DNA of 40,726 nucleotides, taken from UHGV virus genome UHGV-0389734; one strand, 5' to 3'. A model generated the notes under the pieces. It did not search any database. It worked only from the letters and a program-made list of their open reading frames with translations, and was not told the origin of the DNA. This DNA is from a virus. Below are positions 1,958 to 34,853 of this stretch, piece by piece. Within the stretch, counting starts at the first letter, position 1, and every line of letters begins with the position of its first letter. The position numbers and the translations under genes are program-made.

Positions 1958-4900
1958 GGCTTCTTTCTCCTTTCAGTCTCATCTTCATACTCTCACGTCT
2001 TTCCAGATCTTTCTGTGTAAATTCTGCCGTAACACGCGCTGCTTCTCTGCCGTTATATTCAACCGGCACAACAATTGTGTATGTAGCATTCCGGTTATAG
2101 GAATAATCACCGGAAAGTTCAGGATCTCCGGCACCGGAAAACCGCATTCTCATATCTGTGGATAATGTTGGAATCTCCACAATGTTCTGCGTAGCTTCTG
2201 CAACCTTTCTGGACATCGACTCAATTCCAAGCGCAAATCCTTCGCCTACATAGACACCCAGCCCAGCAAATACTCTTGACGGACTATGGATTTTTGCTTT
2301 TGCCCTGACTGCAGCATCTGCAGCCGCAGCCATTTGCGCTGCAACTGATCTGATATATCCCAAGGTTGACGACATACCATTTGCGAAGCCTAACCCTATG
2401 TTGTATCCGCTACTGTATGCGCCGCTTGCACCGGAAGCCAGGGATGATAATACTGCAGATACAGTTTTGGTTGCGACTGCCTGTGTCGGCTGTAGTCCGT
2501 TCTGTACACCCTCTTTTGCACTGTCCCCAAGTTTCTGTCCAGAGTTTCTCGCTTTTCCTGCGCCGTTGTCAAATGCGCTTACAATAGATTTCACCGCACT
2601 TTTCGCCTTGTTACCAAGCGCATCTAGCCCATCATTTACAATGCTTACAGAATCTTTCATGCTGGTAATGGATTTCTGCGCTGTCTTTGCGTTCTTAGCA
2701 ATGGACTTCATGCTGGAATTTACCGCCAATAATGCTGCTGCCATTGCCAGTGTTCCTGCACTTCCCGCGAGCATCGCCGCACTGAACAACAGCAATCCCG
2801 TGGTAAGCGCAAGACAGCTTGTGCCAGCTGCTAATGCCCCAGCTGAAAATACTAACAACGCTGATCCAAGAGTCAAGACAATAGATGCACCAGTAGATCC
2901 GTTAGATGTCAAAGCTGGTAACGCAAGTACAAATATACTCAATGCTGCAACAGCTGCGATAGCAGATGCGGAAAACGCCATCATAGCCACAGACAGGACA
3001 AGAACTCCGGCACACAATACAAGAACCGCCGCAGATGCAACTAATAATCCAGTTCCTAATACTACTACCGCTGCGCTTACCACCAAAGCTCCTGCGCCAA
3101 ATACAGCAAGTGATGCACCTAGTGCTAAAAGTGAAACGGATACTTGCAATCCATGCTCGGAAATAACTGGGAATAATGTAGATAACAGTGATAAACCTGC
3201 ATAAGCCAATACAGAACCTGCTCCAATAAGACCAAGACCCGATGATACAAGAATAAGTGATACACCTAAAATCATTGCTCCCACTCCGGCAATCATTGCC
3301 ACTGATCCAAAAACAGCAAGGCTGCTAGCTAGTGCCACAAGACTAATTGCATTCTCAAGAGCATTCGCTGCTAACATAGGCAAACAAGAAGCTAATTTCA
3401 TCAACCCTTCTGCGGCTAACAAAGCGCCGGTTCCTAATAACATCATTCCTGCCCCGATAATTAACACGCCAGCTGCCACCACAAGTAATGATGCCGATAC
3501 CAAAGCAAGACCTGCTCCTACGACCATAAGTCCGGCGCCGAGAATAATACTTCCCGCTCCTGCGAGTGTTGCTCCTGCTGCAAAAGCCATCATCGCAAGA
3601 GATAATTGCAAGATTGCCGTAGCGCCCTCTGTGCCGTAAGCTGTCACAATCGGAAGTACCGCAGCTACCACTGCAAGCGCAGCTCCTGCCAGCAATGCTC
3701 CAACTCCAACCAGTAGTGCTGCCGCCCCAAATGCAACCAGTCCGATTGAAGCTGCTGTAAGAGCTGGTCCCACTGCTGCAGCTACAACCATTAAGGCACC
3801 GATTGCCACAATCAGGCCAAACATAACTCCGACAGCTAAAGGTCCTGCATTTGCTAAAGATATAGATGCAGTAGTTAATAACATCATTCCTGCTGCCGCC
3901 ACAAGGACTGCTGCGCCGAAAGCAAGCAAGCCGACAGCTCCTGCGGTCAATGCCGATCCTACCATTTTTGCAACAATCATAAGACCTGCGATTGCCGCTA
4001 CCATACCAACCATCACACCAATTGCAAGTGGTCCCGCACTGGCGAGATTGATCGCTGCGCTGGATAAGACATAAAAAGCGGCGCTCACCATCAATAAACT
4101 CACCCCAAAAGCAATCATCGCTTTTGACATTGCTGCAAGTTTTTTCGTTCCACCGGACATTGTAGATAGCATTTTCATCATTCCGAGCCCGAGACCTGCC
4201 ACAACTACTACAAGTCCTGCGAGTACACCCACCGCCAACGGACCTGAATCCGCCACTGCTTTTGCTCCTTGCGCAAGCAAAAAGAAACCACCACTAATCA
4301 AAGCAACTCCGGCACCCAACATCATGAATGCTTTAGCAGATGCAAGCATTTTCTTGGAACTTGTAGCACTACTTTTACCGACCGCTTCTTGCCCTTTGGA
4401 AATTCCAAACAATTTTCCGGCAATCGTACTAATCCCTGCGCCGGCAAGACCTGCAATCGCACTGGTGAATGCACCTACAAACGGGGCAACACTTTTTGCA
4501 ATCTTAAAGCCTTTATATGCCACGAAAAGCTGCGGGAGATTTGATATTACTTTCGCGATAATCTCGGAATGCTCCTCTAGGAATCCAGCAAAGCTTTTCA
4601 ATGCTCCGCTCGCAGAATCCATTGCACTGCTAAAAGAACTGATGCTTTCCGTGGAGCCAAACGCACCAGTAATCTTTCCGAGATCTTCTCCAATTGCGGA
4701 AAAAGCATCTCCAAAAGCGGTCTTCACTTCTAATGCTTCTGTTTTTAAAACATTCCAGTACCCGCTTGCTTTATCGAGAAATCCAGTTAATTTTCCTGCG
4801 ATTGCATCTCCATCAAGATCTCCAATTTTATTAATTATCCCGTCCAAAGATTTAATCGCTCGACCGGATAAAACATCAAATGACGGTGCCAGCTTATTGC

Positions 4901-14087: not shown

Positions 14088-15356
14088 TTATATTCCTCCT
14101 CTAAATGTCTTTAACTTCACTTTGCCTTTTCTCTCCTGCTCAATAGAATATCTGAGCATTGCCATTGCATCATCAAAGAAATTCACTGGCTCATCCGTGA
14201 ATGTGTTCGTTTTCTCATCCTTTTTCCATTTCCACTGCTGGATCTCCTTAATTGTGTTTGTACAGGATGGATGAATGTGGATCGTGTGCTGCTTTAAGTA
14301 GTCAATCTGCGCTTTCACACTGTTTGGCTCTTTCTTGACCGGGCGTGCTCTGTATCCTGCTTTCTGCCACATCTTAATCCTGTCTGGCTCTGCAGAATCA
14401 CAATACATGGTAATTCTCTTCTGGAATTTTCCCTCGGCCAGCTGTATGATCTCGGATGTATCTTTTTCAAATACATACAACTCTCGGCACAAATAGATCT
14501 CTCCGTCTTTAAATCCTACCTCTCCGATACAGTTCGCATGGTTGAATCCAAAATCCTGTGAATTTACCATGTAATCGAATCTTTCTGGGGATGTATCGAA
14601 TTCCTCAACCACATAATTTGTAAGGATAAGACCGCCAGTTTCTCCCCATTCACCGAGTCCATAAATCCGATATCCGTCAGGATCCCGTTCTTTACGCATC
14701 ATCATGCGCCGGTGATATGCTTCGTCTATGAACCGATTCTGCAGGTACGTGGACTGGTGTGTGTATACATCGTCGCTCTTAATGTCAAAATACTTTGCCT
14801 TCAGCCAGTGCGTTGCTGACACTGGATTGAAGCTGAATGTAATCTGGTAATACAAAAATGGATTGAATGACAAGTCACCTCTGAGTCGGTCATCGAGAAT
14901 ATCGACATCCGCTTCATATAGCTCCGTTGCTTCTTCAATCCATATCCATGTTAATTTTCCGACATCAAATGTGATAGACTTAACCTTTTCTCGCTGTCCA
15001 TCGTCTTTCATCCCTCGGAAAATCACTTTATTCCCAGTTACTTTAGATATCAGCTCCATTGGATTGCTTCTGATCTGCCAGAATAATCCAGCCTTATCTC
15101 CGTATATCTTGTATATTGCACTCTTCAACTCCGCATAAGTACTATCTTTGTTTGTTGTGTCTACTTTCCGGACGCACAAGAGATTTGCACCTTTATACTT
15201 TGGATCGCCAAGTTTGATGATAAAATTCTGTGCAATGTTTACCGACTTTCCGGATCCAGCAGAGCCTTTTGCCAGTCGATATCGTTTCTTACACTCATTG
15301 AATTCTTTAAAATTTCTGTTAAATCCAACATTAACTTCCTTCATCTTCATCACCAT
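14088..15356 (-). CDS. terL: terminase large subunit, 422 aa
   Basis: Walker A motif LAKGSAGSGKS near the N-terminus. Follows the small subunit gene. Confidence 0.8.
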   Translation of the reverse strand: MVMKMKEVNVGFNRNFKEFNECKKRYRLAKGSAGSGKSVNIAQNFIIKLGDPKYKGANLLCVRKVDTTNKDSTYAELKSAIYKIYGDKAGLFWQIRSNPMELISKVTGNKVIFRGMKDDGQREKVKSITFDVGKLTWIWIEEATELYEADVDILDDRLRGDLSFNPFLYYQITFSFNPVSATHWLKAKYFDIKSDDVYTHQSTYLQNRFIDEAYHRRMMMRKERDPDGYRIYGLGEWGETGGLILTNYVVEEFDTSPERFDYMVNSQDFGFNHANCIGEVGFKDGEIYLCRELYVFEKDTSEIIQLAEGKFQKRITMYCDSAEPDRIKMWQKAGYRARPVKKEPNSVKAQIDYLKQHTIHIHPSCTNTIKEIQQWKWKKDEKTNTFTDEPVNFFDDAMAMLRYSIEQERKGKVKLKTFRGGI

Positions 15357-15912
15357 AGTCTACTACAATCTTCATGTCCATATCTCCTGCTACATCCAGC
15401 TTGTCATTCCACATACCTAAATGCCTGCCGAGAAGCTCGAGCGCCTTTACCTTGTCGCAGGGCTTCTGTTCCAATCCATCGCGCCCCTTTTTAATCGTTC
15501 CGAGGGCTCGCTGCTGTTCCTCAGTAAGGTTATCTGTAAGCTCCAATTCTACGGTCCGATACAGAATCGGTTCTCCGTCTTCTCCTACAAGTGGAATAAT
15601 ATTTCCATCTACTTCTGCTGTAGCCTGTTTCTCAACTACTTTCGCGTAGTCTGAAGCCTTGGAAAAAGCAATGGCAGCCAATTCCTGTAGCACCATGTCC
15701 TGGGTGATCTCCGTTCGTTTCTGCCGTTCTTCCATTCGTTCTGTGATATATGTTTGAATCCGAGTATTTCCGAGTAATTTTCTTGCTGCTGCATCTGCCG
15801 AACTATCTTTTTTGCAATTCGGATACGCCGCGCGGTAAGCCCGTGTGGCATTTAGATCAATCAAGTACTCATCTGCAAATATTTTCTGTTTTTCTGTCAT
15901 AGGACTCACCAC
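15331..15912 (-). CDS. terS: terminase small subunit, 193 aa
   Basis: N-terminal KQKIFADEYLIDLNATRAYRAAYP motif typical of Terminase_2 family small subunits. Confidence 0.7.
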   Translation of the reverse strand: MVSPMTEKQKIFADEYLIDLNATRAYRAAYPNCKKDSSADAAARKLLGNTRIQTYITERMEERQKRTEITQDMVLQELAAIAFSKASDYAKVVEKQATAEVDGNIIPLVGEDGEPILYRTVELELTDNLTEEQQRALGTIKKGRDGLEQKPCDKVKALELLGRHLGMWNDKLDVAGDMDMKIVVDYGDEDEGS

Positions 15913-15937
15913 CTTTCAATCTGTTAATTTAATACAT

Positions 15938-15962
15938 AGAAAAAGAGACACCGAAGTGCCTC
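15938..15962 (-). terminator. Rho-independent terminator after the DUF2971-like gene
   Basis: Minus strand GAGGCAC-UUCG-GUGUCUC hairpin (7 bp, one G-U pair, UUCG tetraloop) followed by UUUUUCU. Confidence 0.55.
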
Positions 15963-15969
15963 ATTTTCC

Positions 15970-16710
15970 TTACTTTCTTACAGGTATTTCTGAATATACG
16001 ACTATAGTTTCATTTAACCCATAAACTTTTATTGTTTCTTTTATCAAATTCGCAAACCATCCTCCTGCAAACGGGCTAACATACACTGATTCTATAAGTT
16101 CGTTTAAATCGATGCTCACATTTTTTCCAGGCTCTTCACCTGAAAATTCTAGAAATAAAGCTCTAATTTCTTCTTCATAGCTATACGGCTTTATTTTGTA
16201 TACCTCCCTAATAGGGGTTTGCACTTCACAATCCTGGAATTTGTATCCAACTTTTGGAAATGTAACTTCAGTATTTTTGTTTTCAAACGAATCCATATAT
16301 TGCATTGCATATACGTTTATTTTTTTATCGTTTAATGCTTTTTTCAACTTTCCAACTGTTGTTTTTATTGCTACTCCTGATTCTTCATCTGTGTAAATTT
16401 TCCACAAAGCATACGATTCTTGACCGTTAAATTTATTCCAACAATTAGCATACACATTCCTAACAGAATTCAAATGAGACTGGATACCTTTATACCCTTC
16501 TTCAAAGTTTTTATCCCAACCTTTGAAAAAGCCTGCTGGTATTTCTCCTTCATGCGCATCTTCAAAGATTTTTACATTTGTAAAGAAAAGCTTCTTAAAT
16601 ACTAAAAGGCTCATAAATTTACTTAAACTCATATACCTTATAATTTCTTCATCATCGCCCACAGAAAATTTTGCTTCAGTTTCTGACATATCGCCTATAG
16701 TTCTAACCAT
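15970..16710 (-). CDS. DUF2971-like protein, 246 aa (accessory gene)
   Basis: N-terminal IIRYMSLSKFMSLLVFKKLFFTNVKIFEDAHEGE matches the DUF2971 N-terminal pattern. The region is visibly AT-rich compared with its neighbours. Confidence 0.45.
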   Translation of the reverse strand: MVRTIGDMSETEAKFSVGDDEEIIRYMSLSKFMSLLVFKKLFFTNVKIFEDAHEGEIPAGFFKGWDKNFEEGYKGIQSHLNSVRNVYANCWNKFNGQESYALWKIYTDEESGVAIKTTVGKLKKALNDKKINVYAMQYMDSFENKNTEVTFPKVGYKFQDCEVQTPIREVYKIKPYSYEEEIRALFLEFSGEEPGKNVSIDLNELIESVYVSPFAGGWFANLIKETIKVYGLNETIVVYSEIPVRK

Positions 16711-16855
16711 TTCTTTTCCCCATTCATTTGCTTTCCTTTTATTCTACTCCTAAAATAATCAGTATTCAACACATCTTTTAGTACTGCTGCTCGAAATAAT
16801 GGCAACCATATTCATTAACTATATTTCTGAAATACACTGCTCGAACATTTTCTTT

Positions 16856-17637
16856 CTATACTCCTAAAAAGAATTTAAGGAATCTATTTCCATATGGTGT
16901 TATTTTATACCTTTCCCCCCTCGTAATCTTTTTCAATGTCTTTAGTTTAGGATTTTTCTTTCCTTTGGAAAGGTCTTCAATATAACTAGTTATATTACTA
17001 AGATTTTCATTCATGTATTCTTCGTTTCTATTTTGTAAAAGCCCTAGTCGCTCCAGCTTCTCTCTGATTAGACTCGCTTGTGAATCATCTATTTCATGTT
17101 CTCTCATTAAACGATATATATCATCATTTTTTTCTTCATCGACATATGAAAAACTATACAATTTCAGCATTCTTATATCCACTAAGCTTAACTGATCTAA
17201 TGTTTCATAATACATTAGTACTATATCGTCTTTTCCCGAATAGTTTTCAGCTAAATTCATCAAACCATTTACAATAAAACTTATTTTTTCTTCCTGTTTT
17301 GTATTCTGAACAAAATCTGACACAAGTGGGAAAATTTCAGACTTAAATTTTTCTTTTTCCGCATTTTCTAATTTGTTCAACCTTTCATTAAACTTTTCTT
17401 GTCTCTGGCATATATCGTAAATATATTTTTCCCAGTTACGTTCCCATCTCTTTTGTTGATACGCAACCATAATGCCTCCTATTCTTGGCGATATCGCCCC
17501 TACCGCTCCTCCTATTGCTGCTTCCACAACAGTCCCGCGCACCATCTCTCCTACGAGTGCTGGAGCTGCTTCTTCCACCAAAACTTCTCCTATGTACCCC
17601 TTTGTTGCGCTAATAATATCGTGTATCTTTTCAGCCA
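16856..17637 (-). CDS. hypothetical protein with N-terminal Gly/Ala-rich hydrophobic segment and C-terminal coiled coil (about 260 aa)
   Basis: Likely start is ATG at 17637 (MAEKIHDIIS) with GGAGG 8 nt upstream. The longer track ORF (to 17746) would abut the tRNA. The GEMVRGTVVEAAIGGAVGAISPRIGGIMVAY segment is followed by a Lys/Glu-rich helical region. Confidence 0.45.
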
Positions 17638-17748
17638 TAATTGTTTCCTCCATTTTATTCAGTATACTGGAATAATTATACTGTATAAAATAGGCTATAA
17701 CAACCATGGGAAATCTAATCTCGCTACAAGTATCGAAATTATCCACAA

Positions 17749-17822
17749 TCCGGACAACGGGAATCGAACCCGTGACACACAGCTTATAAGGCTGCTGCTC
17801 TAACCGACTGAGCTATGTCCGG
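17749..17822 (-). tRNA. tRNA, anticodon UAU (Ile-type reading AUA), 74 nt, no encoded CCA
   Basis: Hand-folded cloverleaf on the minus strand: acceptor CCGGACA/TGTCCGG, U8, D-arm GCTC-AGTCGGTTA-GAGC, anticodon arm GCAGC-CTTATAA-GCTGT, T-arm ACGGG-TTCGATT-CCCGT, discriminator A. Confidence 0.65.
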
Positions 17823-18020
17823 TAGGATGCCTTTTATTGACATCCTTTACCCTATCCGCACTCGGGTACTGACACTAAATATAGATTGCTGAATCTATTT
17901 TTTGTTTGTTGTCTTTTGCAGATCTGCGGATATCTGCGTTTTGGTACCATTTGCAATGTAAGTCCGGCGTGCACTCCCAGAACAGACCTCAGCTGTGCGG
18001 CCTGTATACTCACATCACAA

Positions 18021-18045
18021 AACCGTGTGCAGGGATCGAACCCGC
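18021..18045 (-). other. tRNA 3'-half-like fragment (T-arm plus acceptor 3' strand) without a foldable 5' half
   Basis: Minus strand GCGGG-TTCGATC-CCTGC followed by ACACGGT. No matching D or anticodon arms could be built. Confidence 0.3.
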
Positions 18046-18190
18046 TTGTCCCAACTGACCACGGCATAGAAACACCGCCAGACAAGAAAGGGGAGAAGTC
18101 CGGCGGTGTTCCGAATGTTTGGAAAGATTGTTTTATAACAATATATAATCGTTCTAGAATAATTATATCATAAGTAAAATGTTAATTGTG

Positions 18191-18610
18191 TTAATCTTTC
18201 AGATATTCGCTAATTATTTGTGAAATTCTTCCTCTGCTATATCCAATGATGTCTGCAACTTCATCCTGCTTCTTACCCTCGAGAAACGATAACTCAAATA
18301 TCTCCTTAATCTCCGGATCATCAATCCCATTTATGTAGTCCTCTACTTCTTTTTGCTCTTTCAGAATCCGCAGCCTGTCCGCTTCTTTTCTTCTGATCTG
18401 ACGTCTTATATTCTCTTCCTCGTAAGGATCATACATTTGTACAGATGTTCTCACTTCGGTGTATGGGAAATCTGCACTGGATCCAGTTACTTTCCCCATA
18501 ACAACAGTTGGTTCCCGTTCGCAAAGTTCTTGTATCCTCTCCTCTATTCGGATTAACCTGTCTTTGTTCGGCTTATACTTTTTTAAAGTTTTCTTGTCCA
18601 CTGGAAACAC
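18191..18610 (-). CDS. late-gene transcriptional activator (sigma-70 region 4-like, ArpU/RinA-type)
   Basis: 139 aa. C-terminal EIFELSFLEGKKQDEVADIIGYSRGRISQI resembles a sigma region 4 helix-turn-helix. Located upstream of the packaging genes. Confidence 0.55.
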   Translation of the reverse strand: MFPVDKKTLKKYKPNKDRLIRIEERIQELCEREPTVVMGKVTGSSADFPYTEVRTSVQMYDPYEEENIRRQIRRKEADRLRILKEQKEVEDYINGIDDPEIKEIFELSFLEGKKQDEVADIIGYSRGRISQIISEYLKD

Positions 18611-18782
18611 TCCCTTTCGTATCTACTCCCCATTTTCTCAAGCAGTCCTCCACAGAGTATGCCTTTCTTTTCATCCATTTCTTGGCGTTCTCTGTCGGCT
18701 CATGCTTAGCCATATCATGTGCATCTATCTTTCGGATGACTCCTGCTGTCTCCTTTCTGCGCTTCATAGTCTCTCTTGTCAT
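18573..18782 (-). CDS. hypothetical protein, 69 aa
   Basis: ORF in the early-gene block; overlaps the downstream gene by 38 nt. Confidence 0.3.
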   Translation of the reverse strand: MTRETMKRRKETAGVIRKIDAHDMAKHEPTENAKKWMKRKAYSVEDCLRKWGVDTKGSVSSGQENFKKV

Positions 18783-30580: not shown

Positions 30581-30781
30581 CTACTTTAATAATTCATCAA
30601 TAGTGCACCCTAGCACCTTTGCTACTTTGGACAAACTTCTTATTGTTGGACTCACTGTATTCCACTTATAAATACTTCCGGTAGAAACGCCAGCCTGACT
30701 TTCTAATAAATTGATGGAAATTCCTTTTTCTGCCGCTCTCTTAGATACCTTGTCGAAAATATTATTTTCCGTATCAATCAC
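30581..30781 (-). CDS. Cro-like XRE-family HTH regulator, 66 aa (GTG start)
   Basis: HTH ISINLLESQAGVSTGSIYKW. Divergent from the cI-like gene across the operator region. Confidence 0.6.
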   Translation of the reverse strand: MIDTENNIFDKVSKRAAEKGISINLLESQAGVSTGSIYKWNTVSPTIRSLSKVAKVLGCTIDELLK

Positions 30782-30791
30782 TCCTTTCTTT

Positions 30792-30993
30792 TTGATTAAG
30801 TTCTGAAAATATCACAATTTTATATTGACTAAGTTCTGAAAATATTCTATAATCTAGTTGTCAAGCAAAATTACAAAATAAATTCCAGCATTCTTATTAT
30901 CGCAATTTTTTTGCGATTTTTTCAGAACCCTATAATCACATTATACGCGATAATTTCAGAATGTCAAGGACTATTTTGCGATTTTTTCAGAAT
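30792..30993. promoter_or_regulatory. genetic-switch operator array: five palindromic TTC(A/T)GAA cores at 33-bp phasing
   Basis: TTCTGAA at 30801 and 30834; TTCAGAA at 30921, 30954 and 30987. Two 21-bp near-identical repeats at 30792-30812 and 30825-30845, and two 19-bp repeats at 30908-30926 and 30974-30992. Confidence 0.6.
30825..30853 (+). promoter_or_regulatory. sigma70-type promoter (-35 TTGACT, 17-bp spacer, -10 TATAAT) overlapping an operator repeat
   Basis: Perfect consensus hexamers at 30825-30830 and 30848-30853. Confidence 0.5.
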
Positions 30994-31011
30994 TTTGAAA
31001 GGAGTCTACAT

Positions 31012-31434
31012 ATGACACTGAGAGAACGCGTAAAACATCTGTGCAAAGAACATGGAATTTCAATGAATAAATTGGAAAACGAGCTTAATTTTGGAAAAGG
31101 GTACATAAGCAAATTAGGTTCAAGTCAACCAAATGTTAACAAGCTCCAGCAAATCGCTGATTACTTCAGCGTATCGTTGGATTATTTAATGTCTGGAGCA
31201 TCTAATGGTGATAATCCGTCATCACTCACGGTGAAAGATGAGCGCGATATTGCAAAAGATATGGAAAACATCAGAAATAAGTTGAAAAACAATGAAGAAG
31301 GTCCTGCTTCTTATGATGGTCAAGCTATTCCAGAAGAAGATATTGACTTGCTTCTTGGGCAAATCGAGCTGATGATGAGAAGATTAAAACCGATTAACAA
31401 AGAAAAGTACAACCCTAACAAAAATAAAAAGTAG
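31012..31434 (+). CDS. cI-like XRE-family repressor, 140 aa
   Basis: ATG at 31012 with AAAGGAG RBS (the track ORF starts further upstream without an RBS). N-terminal HTH LRERVKHLCKEHGISMNKLENELNFGKGYISKL. Confidence 0.7.
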   Translation: MTLRERVKHLCKEHGISMNKLENELNFGKGYISKLGSSQPNVNKLQQIADYFSVSLDYLMSGASNGDNPSSLTVKDERDIAKDMENIRNKLKNNEEGPASYDGQAIPEEDIDLLLGQIELMMRRLKPINKEKYNPNKNKK

Positions 31435-31878
31435 GTGTATAAATTGAGAACAAACGATATTAAGCGTTTAGTTGAATACTACATAAAGAAATTTAATACA
31501 AGAAATCCTTTTGAACTTGCAAACTGTTTAAATGTCGAAGTTCAATTAGGACCTTTGGGAAGTCGAGCTGGATGCTATATGTTTCTGAAAAATCACAAGT
31601 GCATTTTTCTGAATGAAGATTTGGAAGAACATGAGCTGAATCTTGTAATGGCTCACGAGTTAGCACACTCCATTCTTCACAGAAAAGAAAATTGCTACTT
31701 TATCAGAAACAAGACTCTTCTGTTATCTTCTACCAATGAAATAGAAGCGAATATTTTTGCAGCAGAACTTCTAATACCAGATTCTTTAATCTATGAGAAT
31801 CCGGGCATGACAAAAAGCCAGATTGCAAGGCTGGCCGGATATGATGAAAAGATTATGGATTTTAAAAAATTTAAATGA
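31435..31878 (+). CDS. ImmA/IrrE-family zinc metalloprotease, 147 aa
   Basis: HEXXH motif (AHELAHSILH). Immediately downstream of the repressor, the usual ImmR-ImmA arrangement. Confidence 0.7.
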   Translation: MYKLRTNDIKRLVEYYIKKFNTRNPFELANCLNVEVQLGPLGSRAGCYMFLKNHKCIFLNEDLEEHELNLVMAHELAHSILHRKENCYFIRNKTLLLSSTNEIEANIFAAELLIPDSLIYENPGMTKSQIARLAGYDEKIMDFKKFK

Positions 31879-31939
31879 TATAACCGCTATGGCGTTTATA
31901 TAAACTTAAGTGGTGTGAAGTACAAAAAAGGAGGAAAAT

Positions 31940-32995
31940 ATGGAGTTTATCGAATCTATCAAACAATTTTCGGAACGTGTATCTATGATAAAAGATACTG
32001 TATCCACTGAAGAAGCGACAAAAATGTCTTTAATCGTACCGCTGTTTCAAATACTTGGGTATGATGTATTTAATCCGTTAGAATTTTGTCCGGAATATAT
32101 CGCAGATGTTGGAATTAAAAAAGGGGAAAAGGTCGACTATGCGATTTTGGATAATGGAGAGCCAAGTATTTTAATTGAATGCAAAAGTTGTTCTGAACAG
32201 TTAGATAAACATTCTTCTCAACTTTTCAGATATTTTGGTACATCTCCAGCTAAATTCGGAATTTTAACAAATGGACTGGTATACAGATTTTACACTGACC
32301 TGGAAGAAGCAAACAAGATGGATTTAGTGCCATTTCTTGAAATCAATATGATCAACTTAAAAGATTCTTCTATTAATGAGTTGAGAAAATTCTGCAAAGA
32401 GAATTTTGACAAAGAAAAAATATTCAGCACAGCCGAAGAATTGAAGTATAGCTCTTTGATAAAAGGAGTTTTATCTGCTGAATTTGAAGCACCATCGGAG
32501 GAATTTGTAAGACTTGTGCTTACAAACATATATGACGGACAAAAAAATCAGAGGGTAATCGAAAAATTTACTCCTGTTGTAAAAAGAGCGTTCTCTTCAT
32601 TTGTCAATGAGATTGTCAATAACAAAATATCTTCAGCTCTTACAAAAGACAGCGAGGATGTAAAAAACGAGACTGAAGAACTGCCGGAAGAACCAGTGTC
32701 AAAAATTGTAACTACAGAAGAAGAGATTGAAGCATTTTATATTATAAGGGGAATGCTTGCCGGATCAGTAGATGTTAATGATATTGTTCACAGAGATACA
32801 GAAAGTTATTTCGGCATTTTATATAAAGATAATAATAGAAAGCCTATCTGTAGGATAAATCTCGATAAGAAGAATAAGCAAGTATTCATTCCTGATGAAA
32901 ATAAAAAAATGGAGCGTTTTTACATAGAAACACTAAATGATCTATATAAGTATCGCGATCAGCTGATTGCAGTTGTAAAGCGATATATGGAGTAA
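31940..32995 (+). CDS. standalone HsdR_N-like (type I restriction R-subunit N-terminal PD-(D/E)xK) domain protein, 351 aa
   Basis: ATKMSLIVPLFQILGYDV...KVDYAILDNGEPSILIECKS...GILTNGLVYRFY matches the HsdR_N domain pattern (Asp, Glu-x-Lys, TNG motif). AAGGAGG RBS. Confidence 0.55.
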   Translation: MEFIESIKQFSERVSMIKDTVSTEEATKMSLIVPLFQILGYDVFNPLEFCPEYIADVGIKKGEKVDYAILDNGEPSILIECKSCSEQLDKHSSQLFRYFGTSPAKFGILTNGLVYRFYTDLEEANKMDLVPFLEINMINLKDSSINELRKFCKENFDKEKIFSTAEELKYSSLIKGVLSAEFEAPSEEFVRLVLTNIYDGQKNQRVIEKFTPVVKRAFSSFVNEIVNNKISSALTKDSEDVKNETEELPEEPVSKIVTTEEEIEAFYIIRGMLAGSVDVNDIVHRDTESYFGILYKDNNRKPICRINLDKKNKQVFIPDENKKMERFYIETLNDLYKYRDQLIAVVKRYME

Positions 32996-33044
32996 TATGA
33001 CTGCACTACAAAATAACGAGAAATACAGGAGAAAAGAGGAATTT

Positions 33045-33536
33045 ATGAAAAAGAAAATTGCAACCATGCTGTTGATTGGAACTATGGCGTTGTCCATGAC
33101 AGCGTGTGGCGGAGATAAAGAGCCAGAAAAAGAGAATGCTGCGAAAACAGAGGCTACGGAAAAAGAACCGGAAGTCGAAGTGACATATCAAAGCATTCTC
33201 GATGATTATACAAAGAAGATTGCTGACGCGACTCCGGGACTTGTGGAAGAATATAATAACGAAGCAGCTCCGATTGCCGGAGACTTAAATGCACTTGCTG
33301 AATTATCAAATAGCAAGGTTGAAAAACTGGCCGAGATTTCTAATCAGGGCGTTTCCGAAATGGCTACGCTAATGCAGAAGAATGGGGACGAGTACAGTGT
33401 TTACGAAGAATGGTCATTGAAATTAACTGACGTATACACCCAATACGCAAAGCAGATCACTGACGCATACACTTCTTCCGCTGCCGGCATGAGTACGGAA
33501 GACCTGATGAATTCTCTTGATTCTTTAGGACAATAA
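33045..33536 (+). CDS. lipoprotein (signal peptide plus lipobox), 163 aa
   Basis: ATG at 33045 with AGGAG RBS. MKKKIATMLLIGTMALSMTAC-GG is a signal peptide ending in a lipobox-like Cys. The mature part is acidic and helical. Confidence 0.55.
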   Translation: MKKKIATMLLIGTMALSMTACGGDKEPEKENAAKTEATEKEPEVEVTYQSILDDYTKKIADATPGLVEEYNNEAAPIAGDLNALAELSNSKVEKLAEISNQGVSEMATLMQKNGDEYSVYEEWSLKLTDVYTQYAKQITDAYTSSAAGMSTEDLMNSLDSLGQ

Positions 33537-33698: not shown

Positions 33699-34853
33699 AT
33701 GGCCAAAAGAAAAAAGCATCCTCGTTTGCCCAATGGTTACGGTCAGATACGCTTCCTTGGTAAGAATCGCCGCAATCCTTACGGCGTTTACCCGCCAGCT
33801 AAAGAAGAATACGAAAACGGGCAAATGAAGCCACAGAAAGCAATATGCTATGTTTCTGACTGGATGATCGGCTTTGCAGTTCTTACAGCATACAAAGCCG
33901 GCACCTATACTCCCGGCATGGAAAATGATATCCAGGTGGATGACAAAAAGAATGCGGAGGATTTTATCCAGTCTCTGCTTGCAAATTATAATCAGGTGCA
34001 AGGAATTAAAGCAAAGGAAGAGCCGCAATTAACATTTGCGGAAGTATTTCGTAAATTCAACGTCAAGAAGTTTGGACATGAATACGATGCAAAAAAAGTA
34101 AAACGTACCAGCTTGGAATATACGCTACGCGCAGGATTCAAGAACTCTGCTGCCCTACACAACAGAATTTTCGCAGAGCTTGTTACAGACGATCTGCAGG
34201 AAGTAATGGACGCTTGTCCACTCAGACACGCCAGTATAGAACACATCAAAAATCTATACTACCACATGTACAAGTATGCTATGGCAAATAACCTGTGTAC
34301 AAAAGATTATTCGTCCTATGTCGAAATCACGCAAGATGATGATGATGAACACGGAATTCCATTTACTGATGAAGATTTGAAGAAATTGTGGGAAACAAAA
34401 GAAAATGAAGCGTCTGAGATGATCTTGATCATGTGCTACTCCGGCTTTCGGATATCGGAATATAAGACTTTAGAAGTGAATTTGAAAGAACGTTATTTTT
34501 TCGGTGGAATAAAAACAGATGCTGGGAAAAATAGAACCGTTCCTATTTATTCGGGTATTTTTGACCTTGTGAAACACCGGATGAAAACACATGGAGCGCT
34601 CCTGCCTGACAAAATCGATATATTCCGGGACAAGATGTATACTCAACTGTCCACACTTGGAATTGAAAAGCATACTCCGCATGATTGCCGGCACACATTT
34701 TCAAAATTGTGCGAAAAATATAAAGTCGCGGAGAATGATCGAAAAAGAATGCTTGGACATAAGATAGGTGATATCACGAATGACACCTATGGCCACCGAA
34801 CACTGGAAGATTTAAGAAAAGAGATTGAAAAAATAGAAATGGATTTGTTGTAA
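33699..34853 (+). CDS. int: tyrosine site-specific integrase, 384 aa
   Basis: AAGGAG RBS. C-terminal catalytic HDCRHTFSKL ... LGH ... Y signature. Confidence 0.8.
   Translation: MAKRKKHPRLPNGYGQIRFLGKNRRNPYGVYPPAKEEYENGQMKPQKAICYVSDWMIGFAVLTAYKAGTYTPGMENDIQVDDKKNAEDFIQSLLANYNQVQGIKAKEEPQLTFAEVFRKFNVKKFGHEYDAKKVKRTSLEYTLRAGFKNSAALHNRIFAELVTDDLQEVMDACPLRHASIEHIKNLYYHMYKYAMANNLCTKDYSSYVEITQDDDDEHGIPFTDEDLKKLWETKENEASEMILIMCYSGFRISEYKTLEVNLKERYFFGGIKTDAGKNRTVPIYSGIFDLVKHRMKTHGALLPDKIDIFRDKMYTQLSTLGIEKHTPHDCRHTFSKLCEKYKVAENDRKRMLGHKIGDITNDTYGHRTLEDLRKEIEKIEMDLL

Follow-up and report, generated by a model that had tools for sequence, protein, structure and literature searches.

Two cassettes between a tRNA gene and terS

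The window analysed in this study is the whole 40,726-nucleotide (nt) stretch of UHGV virus genome UHGV-0389734, the genome of a temperate siphophage that is akin to phages of Ruminococcus (Mediterraneibacter) gnavus, phiRgPS_6 among them. Two accessory genes, here called gene 1 and gene 2, form an AT-rich block in it just ahead of the small terminase gene (terS). Read along the minus strand, the locus consists of the gene of a RinA-like late transcription activator, ∼370 nt of conserved non-coding DNA, tRNA-Ile(tat), gene 2, a spacer of 145 bp, gene 1, a terminator, terS, terL and the portal gene (Table 1). Gene 1 encodes a DUF2971 protein and gene 2 a probable, divergent relative of AbiAlpha/DUF4393; the window carries the two as cassettes in tandem, within a hypervariable slot that is bounded by the tRNA after the RinA-like activator and by terS.

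The composite nature of the block emerges from comparison with related phages, whose loci are numbered L001 onwards. MT835606 (L001) encodes an identical terS protein (terS DNA 97.6% identical, terL 98.6% identical) and has ∼120 nt in place of window positions 15919-17742, as expected from a preliminary description of the DNA, which had taken the two genes for accessory cargo; its homology with the window resumes at 15919, and on the tRNA side, 17742 is the point where homology stops with all relatives. Gene-1 homologues at 95% (L025) and 77% (L027) identity occur in the order activator, tRNA, gene 1, terS, with gene 2 missing. In these two loci and in L028, the homology skips from window position 17742 to 16790, and it is contiguous over 16790-15300 in L025 (92%) and L027 (88%). 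The reciprocal arrangement is found in L033, where a gene-2 homologue (88% identity) comes after a tRNA in a phage whose terminase is of another kind (Terminase_4/TerL_ATPase) and which lacks gene 1; here, homology spans window 17941-16844 (87% identity) and two unrelated small genes then follow the gene-2 homologue. The homology breakpoints are located at 17742, at 16790 or 16844, and at 15919. A gene-1 relative is present in 83 loci and a gene-2 relative in 29; the two are combined in just 2 of 110 loci, namely L039 and L040, and these represent the same phage as the window (99.8% identity over 2474 nt) recovered from two other samples. No gene-1 relative was found within 6 kb in 21 IMG/VR loci that have a gene-2 relative, and a set of 80 phages selected by a related terS gene (51-99% identity) contains neither gene. 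Relatives of terS number more than 589 in IMG/VR. The hidden Markov model of gene 2 may miss very distant Abi_alpha proteins in the co-occurrence count; clustering of the neighbours across the 83 gene-1 loci nevertheless revealed no recurrent neighbouring gene. The block is shown by these comparisons to comprise two separately acquired single-gene cassettes of independent mobility.

Several details of the preliminary description, which had been made from the letters alone, are borne out by the analysis. The two minus-strand genes between the tRNA and terS are present, gene 1 exactly as delimited and gene 2 with its outer end corrected from 17637, which is one base off and out of frame, to 17638. 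The block is indeed richer in AT than its flanks, with a GC content of 0.329 (15920-17741) compared to 0.417 in the rest of the window, and with GC at third codon positions of 0.26 and 0.30 in its two genes compared to 0.36-0.47 in the adjoining ones; no other 1.8-kb stretch of the window has a lower GC content, the lysogeny module being level with it. The proposed UUCG-tetraloop terminator before terS has both the hairpin and the T-run. It closes a block in which each gene has its own promoter-like site, in line with the independent expression suggested earlier. Both hexamers of the gene-1 site are kept in L025, and the version in L027 reads TTGAAG/TAGAAT. The sites are consensus matches, and a scan of the region gave 14 of them against 10.6 expected, so they must be regarded as suggestive only. 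The repeated motif noticed in the 145-bp spacer is CTGCTCGAA, with exactly two copies; when the entire window was shuffled 100 times, only five of the shuffled versions had two or more. A role of the repeats as operators was considered and rejected, for there are two copies only, each lies at a homology breakpoint, and the motif is present only in this phage and its copy L039, the other relatives lacking it. The pair is more likely a recombination scar, or due to chance, than a regulatory site. Scanning of 15300-18700 against Rfam retrieved nothing besides the tRNA.

Table 1. Features of the locus, listed in minus-strand order
Feature	Position	Strand	Evidence and remarks
RinA-like late transcription activator	18191..18610	-	Pfam Sigma70_r4, 3.5e-07; phiRgPS_6 homologue annotated as RinA family activator; upstream landmark of the slot
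tRNA-Ile(tat)	17749..17822	-	ARAGORN; Rfam tRNA, 74 bits; 3' end forms the slot's upstream limit
Gene-2 cassette, ∼950 bp	16791..17741	-	Missing from phages with gene 1 alone
Promoter-like site of gene 2, sigma-70-like, TTGTTA / 17 nt / TATAAT	17675..17703	-	10 of 12 consensus positions
Gene 2, 260 amino acids (aa), divergent AbiAlpha/DUF4393-like	16856..17638	-	ATG at 17638 preceded by GGAGGA ribosome-binding site
CTGCTCGAA pair	16787-16795 and 16837-16845	.	At the joint of the gene-2 and gene-1 cassettes
Gene-1 cassette: promoter-like site, gene 1, terminator	15920..16790	-	Absent from MT835606
Promoter-like site of gene 1, sigma-70-like, TTGAAT / 17 nt / TAGAAT	16741..16769	-	9 of 12 consensus positions
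Gene 1, 246 aa, DUF2971 / PDC-S31-type, predicted DarT-like ADP-ribosyltransferase fold	15970..16710	-	
Intrinsic terminator, 7-bp stem, UUCG loop, T-run	15938..15962	-	GAGGCAC-UUCG-GUGUCUC; between gene 1 and terS
terS (Terminase_2)	15331..15912	-	Pfam 2.9e-34; downstream slot boundary

Families of the two gene products

Gene 1 matches Pfam DUF2971 (PF11185) at 29.4 bits (cutoff 22), over profile positions 1-88 of 89. The family recognized earlier is thereby established, its location corrected: the domain occupies residues 102-183, not the N-terminus. The protein also matches phrog_34615 (1.4e-23) and, nearly from end to end, the PADLOC model PDLC04993 of PDC-S31 (9.4e-23; residues 19-237 to profile positions 13-229 of 245). 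Because PDC entries are untested 'phage defence candidates', membership in PDC-S31 as such says nothing on the function of the protein. Across 38 aligned relatives from Bacillota, Bacteroidota and Proteobacteria, D51, E54, W91, E98, W103, Y106, K172, E179, E181, R183, S212, P213 and S240 are invariant, and Y100 is conserved in at least 90% of the 38 sequences. A 2025 survey placed DUF2971 in the ADP-ribosyltransferase superfamily beside DarT and AbiGi, characterized by a conserved Tyr and an ExE motif (PMC12522546). Gene 1 has both the Tyr (motif II) and the ExE (motif III), the motifs being assigned by position, without superposition; the ExE (E179, E181) is placed at the start of a predicted strand (181-188). 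The AlphaFold model of gene 1 is confident (predicted local distance difference test, pLDDT, 91.5; predicted template-modelling score 0.88), and the fold is predicted to be that of an ADP-ribosyltransferase of the DarT/Tpt1-like type. A sequence search of the PDB with the gene-1 family profile returned no significant match. To our knowledge, NAD+-dependent ADP-ribosylation has been shown for no DUF2971 protein. Most relatives of gene 1 reside on chromosomes or plasmids, in Bacteroidota, Proteobacteria, Bacillota and haloarchaea; relatives were retrieved from 72 genome loci and 252 plasmid records (haloarchaeal ones included), and from 1 of 50,697 phage records. Given that no neighbour recurs in the 83 loci, gene 1 is therefore seen to stand alone, without a DarG-like antitoxin. 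A study of lactococcal plasmids reported an abortive-infection phenotype for the single-gene DUF2971 system Aristaios.

For gene 2, the best Pfam match is Abi_alpha (PF14337, formerly DUF4393), which covers profile positions 5-194 of 196 with 22.1 bits, under the cutoff of 29. The protein belongs with phrog_11520 (4.9e-47), a clade present mainly in gut phages of Clostridia, and an exhaustive profile search identifies the clade as sizeable, with 394 representative clusters, all lacking annotation. The affiliation to Abi_alpha was also assessed at the level of the relatives. Many homologues at 55-63% identity have a precomputed PF14337 match, and one at 56% identity is named DUF4393 in NR. Scanned one by one, 19 of the 34 close relatives and 32 of the 101 distant ones match Abi_alpha at E≤1e-3 (best 1e-8), with no other Pfam family recurring. 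A word-index protein search with the gene-2 profile gave nothing beyond the same clade, and a sequence search of the PDB with the family profile gave no significant match. In phages of known name, Tuc2009 orf29 is a clear homologue and gp36 of Enterococcus phage EH-TP1 aligns over the full length (30% identity, 1e-32). The sequence relationships make gene 2 a probable, divergent relative of AbiAlpha/DUF4393, with only a remote link to the tested AbiAlpha protein, ef2833.

According to the structure model, gene 2 would begin with a conserved Gly-rich hydrophobic segment, continue as a helical core and end in a winged-helix-like domain at the C-terminus. P51 and G54 are conserved residues of the protein. 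The Gly/Ala-rich hydrophobic segment of the preliminary description is thus present, without being a clear membrane helix: the highest Kyte-Doolittle mean that it attains over 19 residues is 1.4, short of the 1.6 customary for a transmembrane helix, it includes Arg and Pro, and the model has a pLDDT below 50 at residues 37-54. Assignment of gene 2 as a membrane protein was rejected for these reasons. Regarding the family at large, AbiAlpha (ef2833, from prophage 6 of Enterococcus faecalis V583) is a one-gene system under a promoter of its own. It makes cells lyse prematurely and so aborts infection by the podophage Idefix, a phenotype known for ef2833 only; AbiAlpha is widespread in prophages of Gram-positive bacteria. 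In phiNM1 lysogens of Staphylococcus aureus, the most abundant prophage protein is a DUF4393 protein. Proteins with the DUF4393 domain are also reported to be strongly enriched as targets of programmed DNA inversions (odds ratio 23; PMC9881135), which hints at variable specificity in the AbiAlpha family.

Variable cargo of the slot

In the 26 related phages for which both landmarks were found, activator gene and terS are separated by 142 to 2970 nt. Many of these phages have the tRNA alone in the slot, others have one to five unrelated open reading frames (ORFs), and phiRgPS_6 has three other small genes at the position. The cargo includes a 665-aa NACHT protein with a SNaCT7 domain (L191 613-2610; Pfam 1.7e-20), an AbiN-like protein (PADLOC 8e-11) and a SLATT_5 effector protein with two transmembrane segments (Pfam 7e-14; PADLOC RTasSLATT 2e-20), L134 4373-4975 and L181 719-1315 being the loci listed for the AbiN-like and SLATT_5 cargo. 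Several unannotated slot proteins have hydrophobic stretches and, as judged by eye, are seemingly membrane-associated. Because gap length and cargo vary and genes of defence type recur, the slot is understood as a cargo hotspot enriched in such genes. The tRNA at its boundary is itself variable among homologous phages (window, L001, L025, L027, L033), with Ile(tat), Asn(gtt), Lys(ttt), Trp(cca) and Thr(cgt) observed, and it is truncated in L039: homology there begins within the tRNA, at 17773, and prediction yields no tRNA. The changing tRNA identity, together with the truncated tRNA, therefore suggests exchange at or within tRNA genes, and cargo may accordingly be swapped by recombination at the tRNA.

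Further particulars of the slot and its surroundings deserve mention. An inverted repeat, composed of GGACTACTGCA, ∼70 nt and TGCAGTAGTCC, comes just after the tRNA in phages whose slot is empty or contains no more than gene 1 (L025 5840-5945; L027 5870-5950; L001 ∼3950-4045). Of this repeat, the window keeps only the downstream arm in an altered form, GCAGCAGTAC, at ∼16781-16790, where gene-2 and gene-1 cassettes join. On the other side of the tRNA-Ile, the non-coding DNA towards the RinA-like gene (17823-18135, minus strand) is 76-91% conserved in related phages, has no Rfam match and folds far better than shuffled sequences (z −6.2). It holds a terminator-like hairpin (CACCGCCGGAC...GTCTGGCGGTG plus UUUCU) and a remnant resembling a tRNA T-arm, at the place of which L025 and L027 have an intact tRNA-Ala(cgc). 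MT835606, the closest relative, has a 441-aa ORF on the opposite strand, between the tRNA region and the RinA-like gene (L001 4620-5945, plus strand of the locus), that has no counterpart in the window. Lastly, a second AT-rich block (GC ∼0.33; 30600-33536, plus strand) is found in the lysogeny module, adjoining the integrase gene (33699-34853). It encodes a helix-turn-helix repressor, an ImmA/IrrE M78 peptidase, an HSDR_N-domain protein of 351 aa (5e-17) and an orphan of 179 aa, and may constitute a second cargo slot.

Proposed function and relation to known systems

Based on the evidence in its entirety, we consider it probable that the block represents two unrelated single-gene cassettes of defence type, acquired separately and now side by side in the slot of a temperate siphophage of the Ruminococcus gnavus type. 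Expression in the lysogen, enzymatic activity, target and any anti-phage phenotype are inferred. Gene 1 would be made in the lysogen from its own promoter and, upon infection by another phage, would most likely consume NAD+ in ADP-ribosylating nucleic acid like DarT, an essential protein being another possible target. Replication would be halted in consequence and the infection aborted, in the manner proposed for the DUF2971 system Aristaios. Gene 2, likewise expressed in the lysogen, would most likely desynchronize the lysis of cells infected by a competing phage, to judge from the one tested relative, ef2833 of E. faecalis, and might act through its conserved Gly-rich hydrophobic segment.

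A number of observations weigh against the proposal of two defence cassettes. The promoters of both genes are consensus matches only, and the function of the genes is itself deduced. PDC-S31 is a candidate model, and it is just the shared domain by which gene 1 is likened to Aristaios. A free DarT-like toxin without antitoxin would need a mechanism of control. On the side of gene 2, the score is below the Pfam cutoff for Abi_alpha, and the likeness to ef2833 is known via the family profile only. EH-TP1 gp36 and Tuc2009 orf29, considered as a bridge from gene 2 to AbiAlpha, had to be dismissed in that role: clear homologues of gene 2, they yet gave no Abi_alpha match when scanned against Pfam. 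Furthermore, gene-2 relatives adjoin terS in many unrelated phages, which could mean a role in the phage's own late functions.

That last point leads to the explanation that both genes serve the lytic cycle of the phage, gene 1 as a host-takeover ADP-ribosyltransferase and gene 2 as a late-region DNA-binding or lysis-timing factor. T4 Alt, ModA and ModB are host-takeover ADP-ribosyltransferases and provide the model for gene 1. Both genes are co-oriented with the late operon, between late activator and terS; relatives of gene 2 occupy the same position in the more distant phages Tuc2009, EH-TP1 and IME197 and in many IMG/VR phages; and the C-terminus of gene 2 is winged-helix-like. We nonetheless regard a lytic-cycle role as unlikely, given that near-identical phages dispense with both genes, that gene-1 relatives are mostly from outside phages (the single phage record mentioned above), that the terminator divides the block from terS and that the one tested relative of gene 2 acts from a prophage against another phage. 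The genes might alternatively be lysogenic-conversion cargo of another kind, or selfish addiction elements, with no anti-phage role; gene 1, for example, could be an ADP-ribosylating toxin directed against competitors or the host, as proposed for the Legionella DUF2971 'effectors'. Low GC and patchy distribution would suit such cargo, and ∼18% of DUF2971 proteins are predicted effectors (PMC12522546). However, the N-terminal part of gene 1 is nowhere strongly hydrophobic (highest Kyte-Doolittle mean over 19 residues 1.11; no signal-peptide predictor was run), defence-associated families are found among the other cargo of the same slot, and the DUF2971 protein Aristaios has an anti-phage phenotype, so that this explanation appears distinctly improbable.

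The preliminary description had proposed a two-gene module. The genes would then form one cooperative system; gene 2, for instance, might be sensor, regulator or antitoxin by way of its winged helix and gene 1 the ADP-ribosyltransferase effector. In favour of such a system, the genes are neighbours of equal orientation with only one terminator, downstream of gene 1, they are present together in two independent samples of this phage, and gene 1 combines a toxin-type fold with the lack of a recognizable antitoxin. Against this stand the close gene-1 homologues located in the same slot without gene 2, the 88%-identity gene-2 homologue and the 21 viral loci without gene 1, a co-occurrence of zero outside this phage among the 83 and 29 loci, the separate cassette boundaries, and the promoter-like site belonging to each gene. 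Homologues of the two genes are co-localized essentially nowhere except in L039 and L040. The two-gene system was rejected on the grounds that co-occurrence is restricted to copies of the same phage and the cassettes have separate boundaries; in view of the comparative data, the cooperative reading is largely refuted and its probability appears very small indeed. The description as 'undescribed' fails as well, since DUF2971 has a tested member in Aristaios and a PADLOC model in PDC-S31, and gene 2 is probably related to AbiAlpha/DUF4393. The suspected link to defence and abortive infection holds, both products being from families tied to it. In sum, the preliminary description finds partial support. 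It was right in taking the genes for defence-like cargo and wrong in calling them undescribed and a module, and both come from abortive-infection families already described.

The proposal of two separately acquired defence cassettes may be extended to a broader scenario, which we advance tentatively and, on balance, lean slightly against. The PDC-S31 clade of ∼250-aa DUF2971 proteins would consist of self-controlled, antitoxin-free DarT-like nucleic-acid ADP-ribosyltransferases for anti-phage abortive infection, and the tRNA-to-terS slot of gut Lachnospiraceae siphophages would be a defence hotspot that swaps single-gene systems (PDC-S31, AbiAlpha-like, NACHT, AbiN-like, SLATT) by recombination at the tRNA. 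If the functions proposed here are true, a temperate phage arms Ruminococcus gnavus, at once a commensal and a pathobiont of the gut, with two different genes for abortive infection, and this would help explain patterns of phage resistance in gut Lachnospiraceae. The locus reveals no new kind of system. Its main value is that of a small natural test set, comprising phages whose slot is empty, has gene 1 or gene 2 singly, or has the two together, for the untested PDC-S31 DUF2971 and AbiAlpha-like clades.

Comparison with known systems places the two cassettes as follows. Like AbiAlpha, gene 2 is a single phage-borne gene for an all-helical protein of ∼260-270 aa in temperate siphophages of Firmicutes, and Abi_alpha is the only Pfam family that recurs among its relatives. 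The promoter-like site ahead of gene 2 is a consensus match (Table 1). Gene 2 differs by affiliation to the distinct clade phrog_11520, with a score below the family cutoff and with some clade members (EH-TP1 gp36, Tuc2009 orf29) that do not match the Abi_alpha model. Gene 1 has in common with Aristaios (pUCCL641_199) the DUF2971 domain, the predicted ADP-ribosyltransferase fold, and the status of a stand-alone gene on a mobile element; the comparison is by description, and Aristaios is a 316-aa protein from a lactococcal plasmid whereas gene 1 is a 246-aa protein from a phage. A tblastn search of PLSDB plasmids with gene 1, made with Aristaios in mind, had no Lactococcus among the 25 matches listed or the ten genera named, a further 17 genera lying outside the listing. 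To PDC-S31, the likeness of gene 1 consists in the nearly end-to-end match and the single-gene context, the difference in the model being an untested 'phage defence candidate'. From DarT, the single-stranded DNA ADP-ribosyltransferase of DarTG, gene 1 is set apart by an identity of only 11-14%, by Arg/Lys-Tyr in place of His at the motif I position and by the missing DarG macrodomain antitoxin, its neighbours being gene 2 and terS and a conserved partner lacking in the 83 loci. Regarding the slot, there exist parallels to the P2/P4 defence hotspots of temperate phages and satellites: here, too, a fixed slot with conserved flanks accommodates interchangeable AT-rich cargo of defence type, with the distinction that it is situated between the tRNA after a RinA-like activator and terS, in siphophages of Lachnospiraceae.

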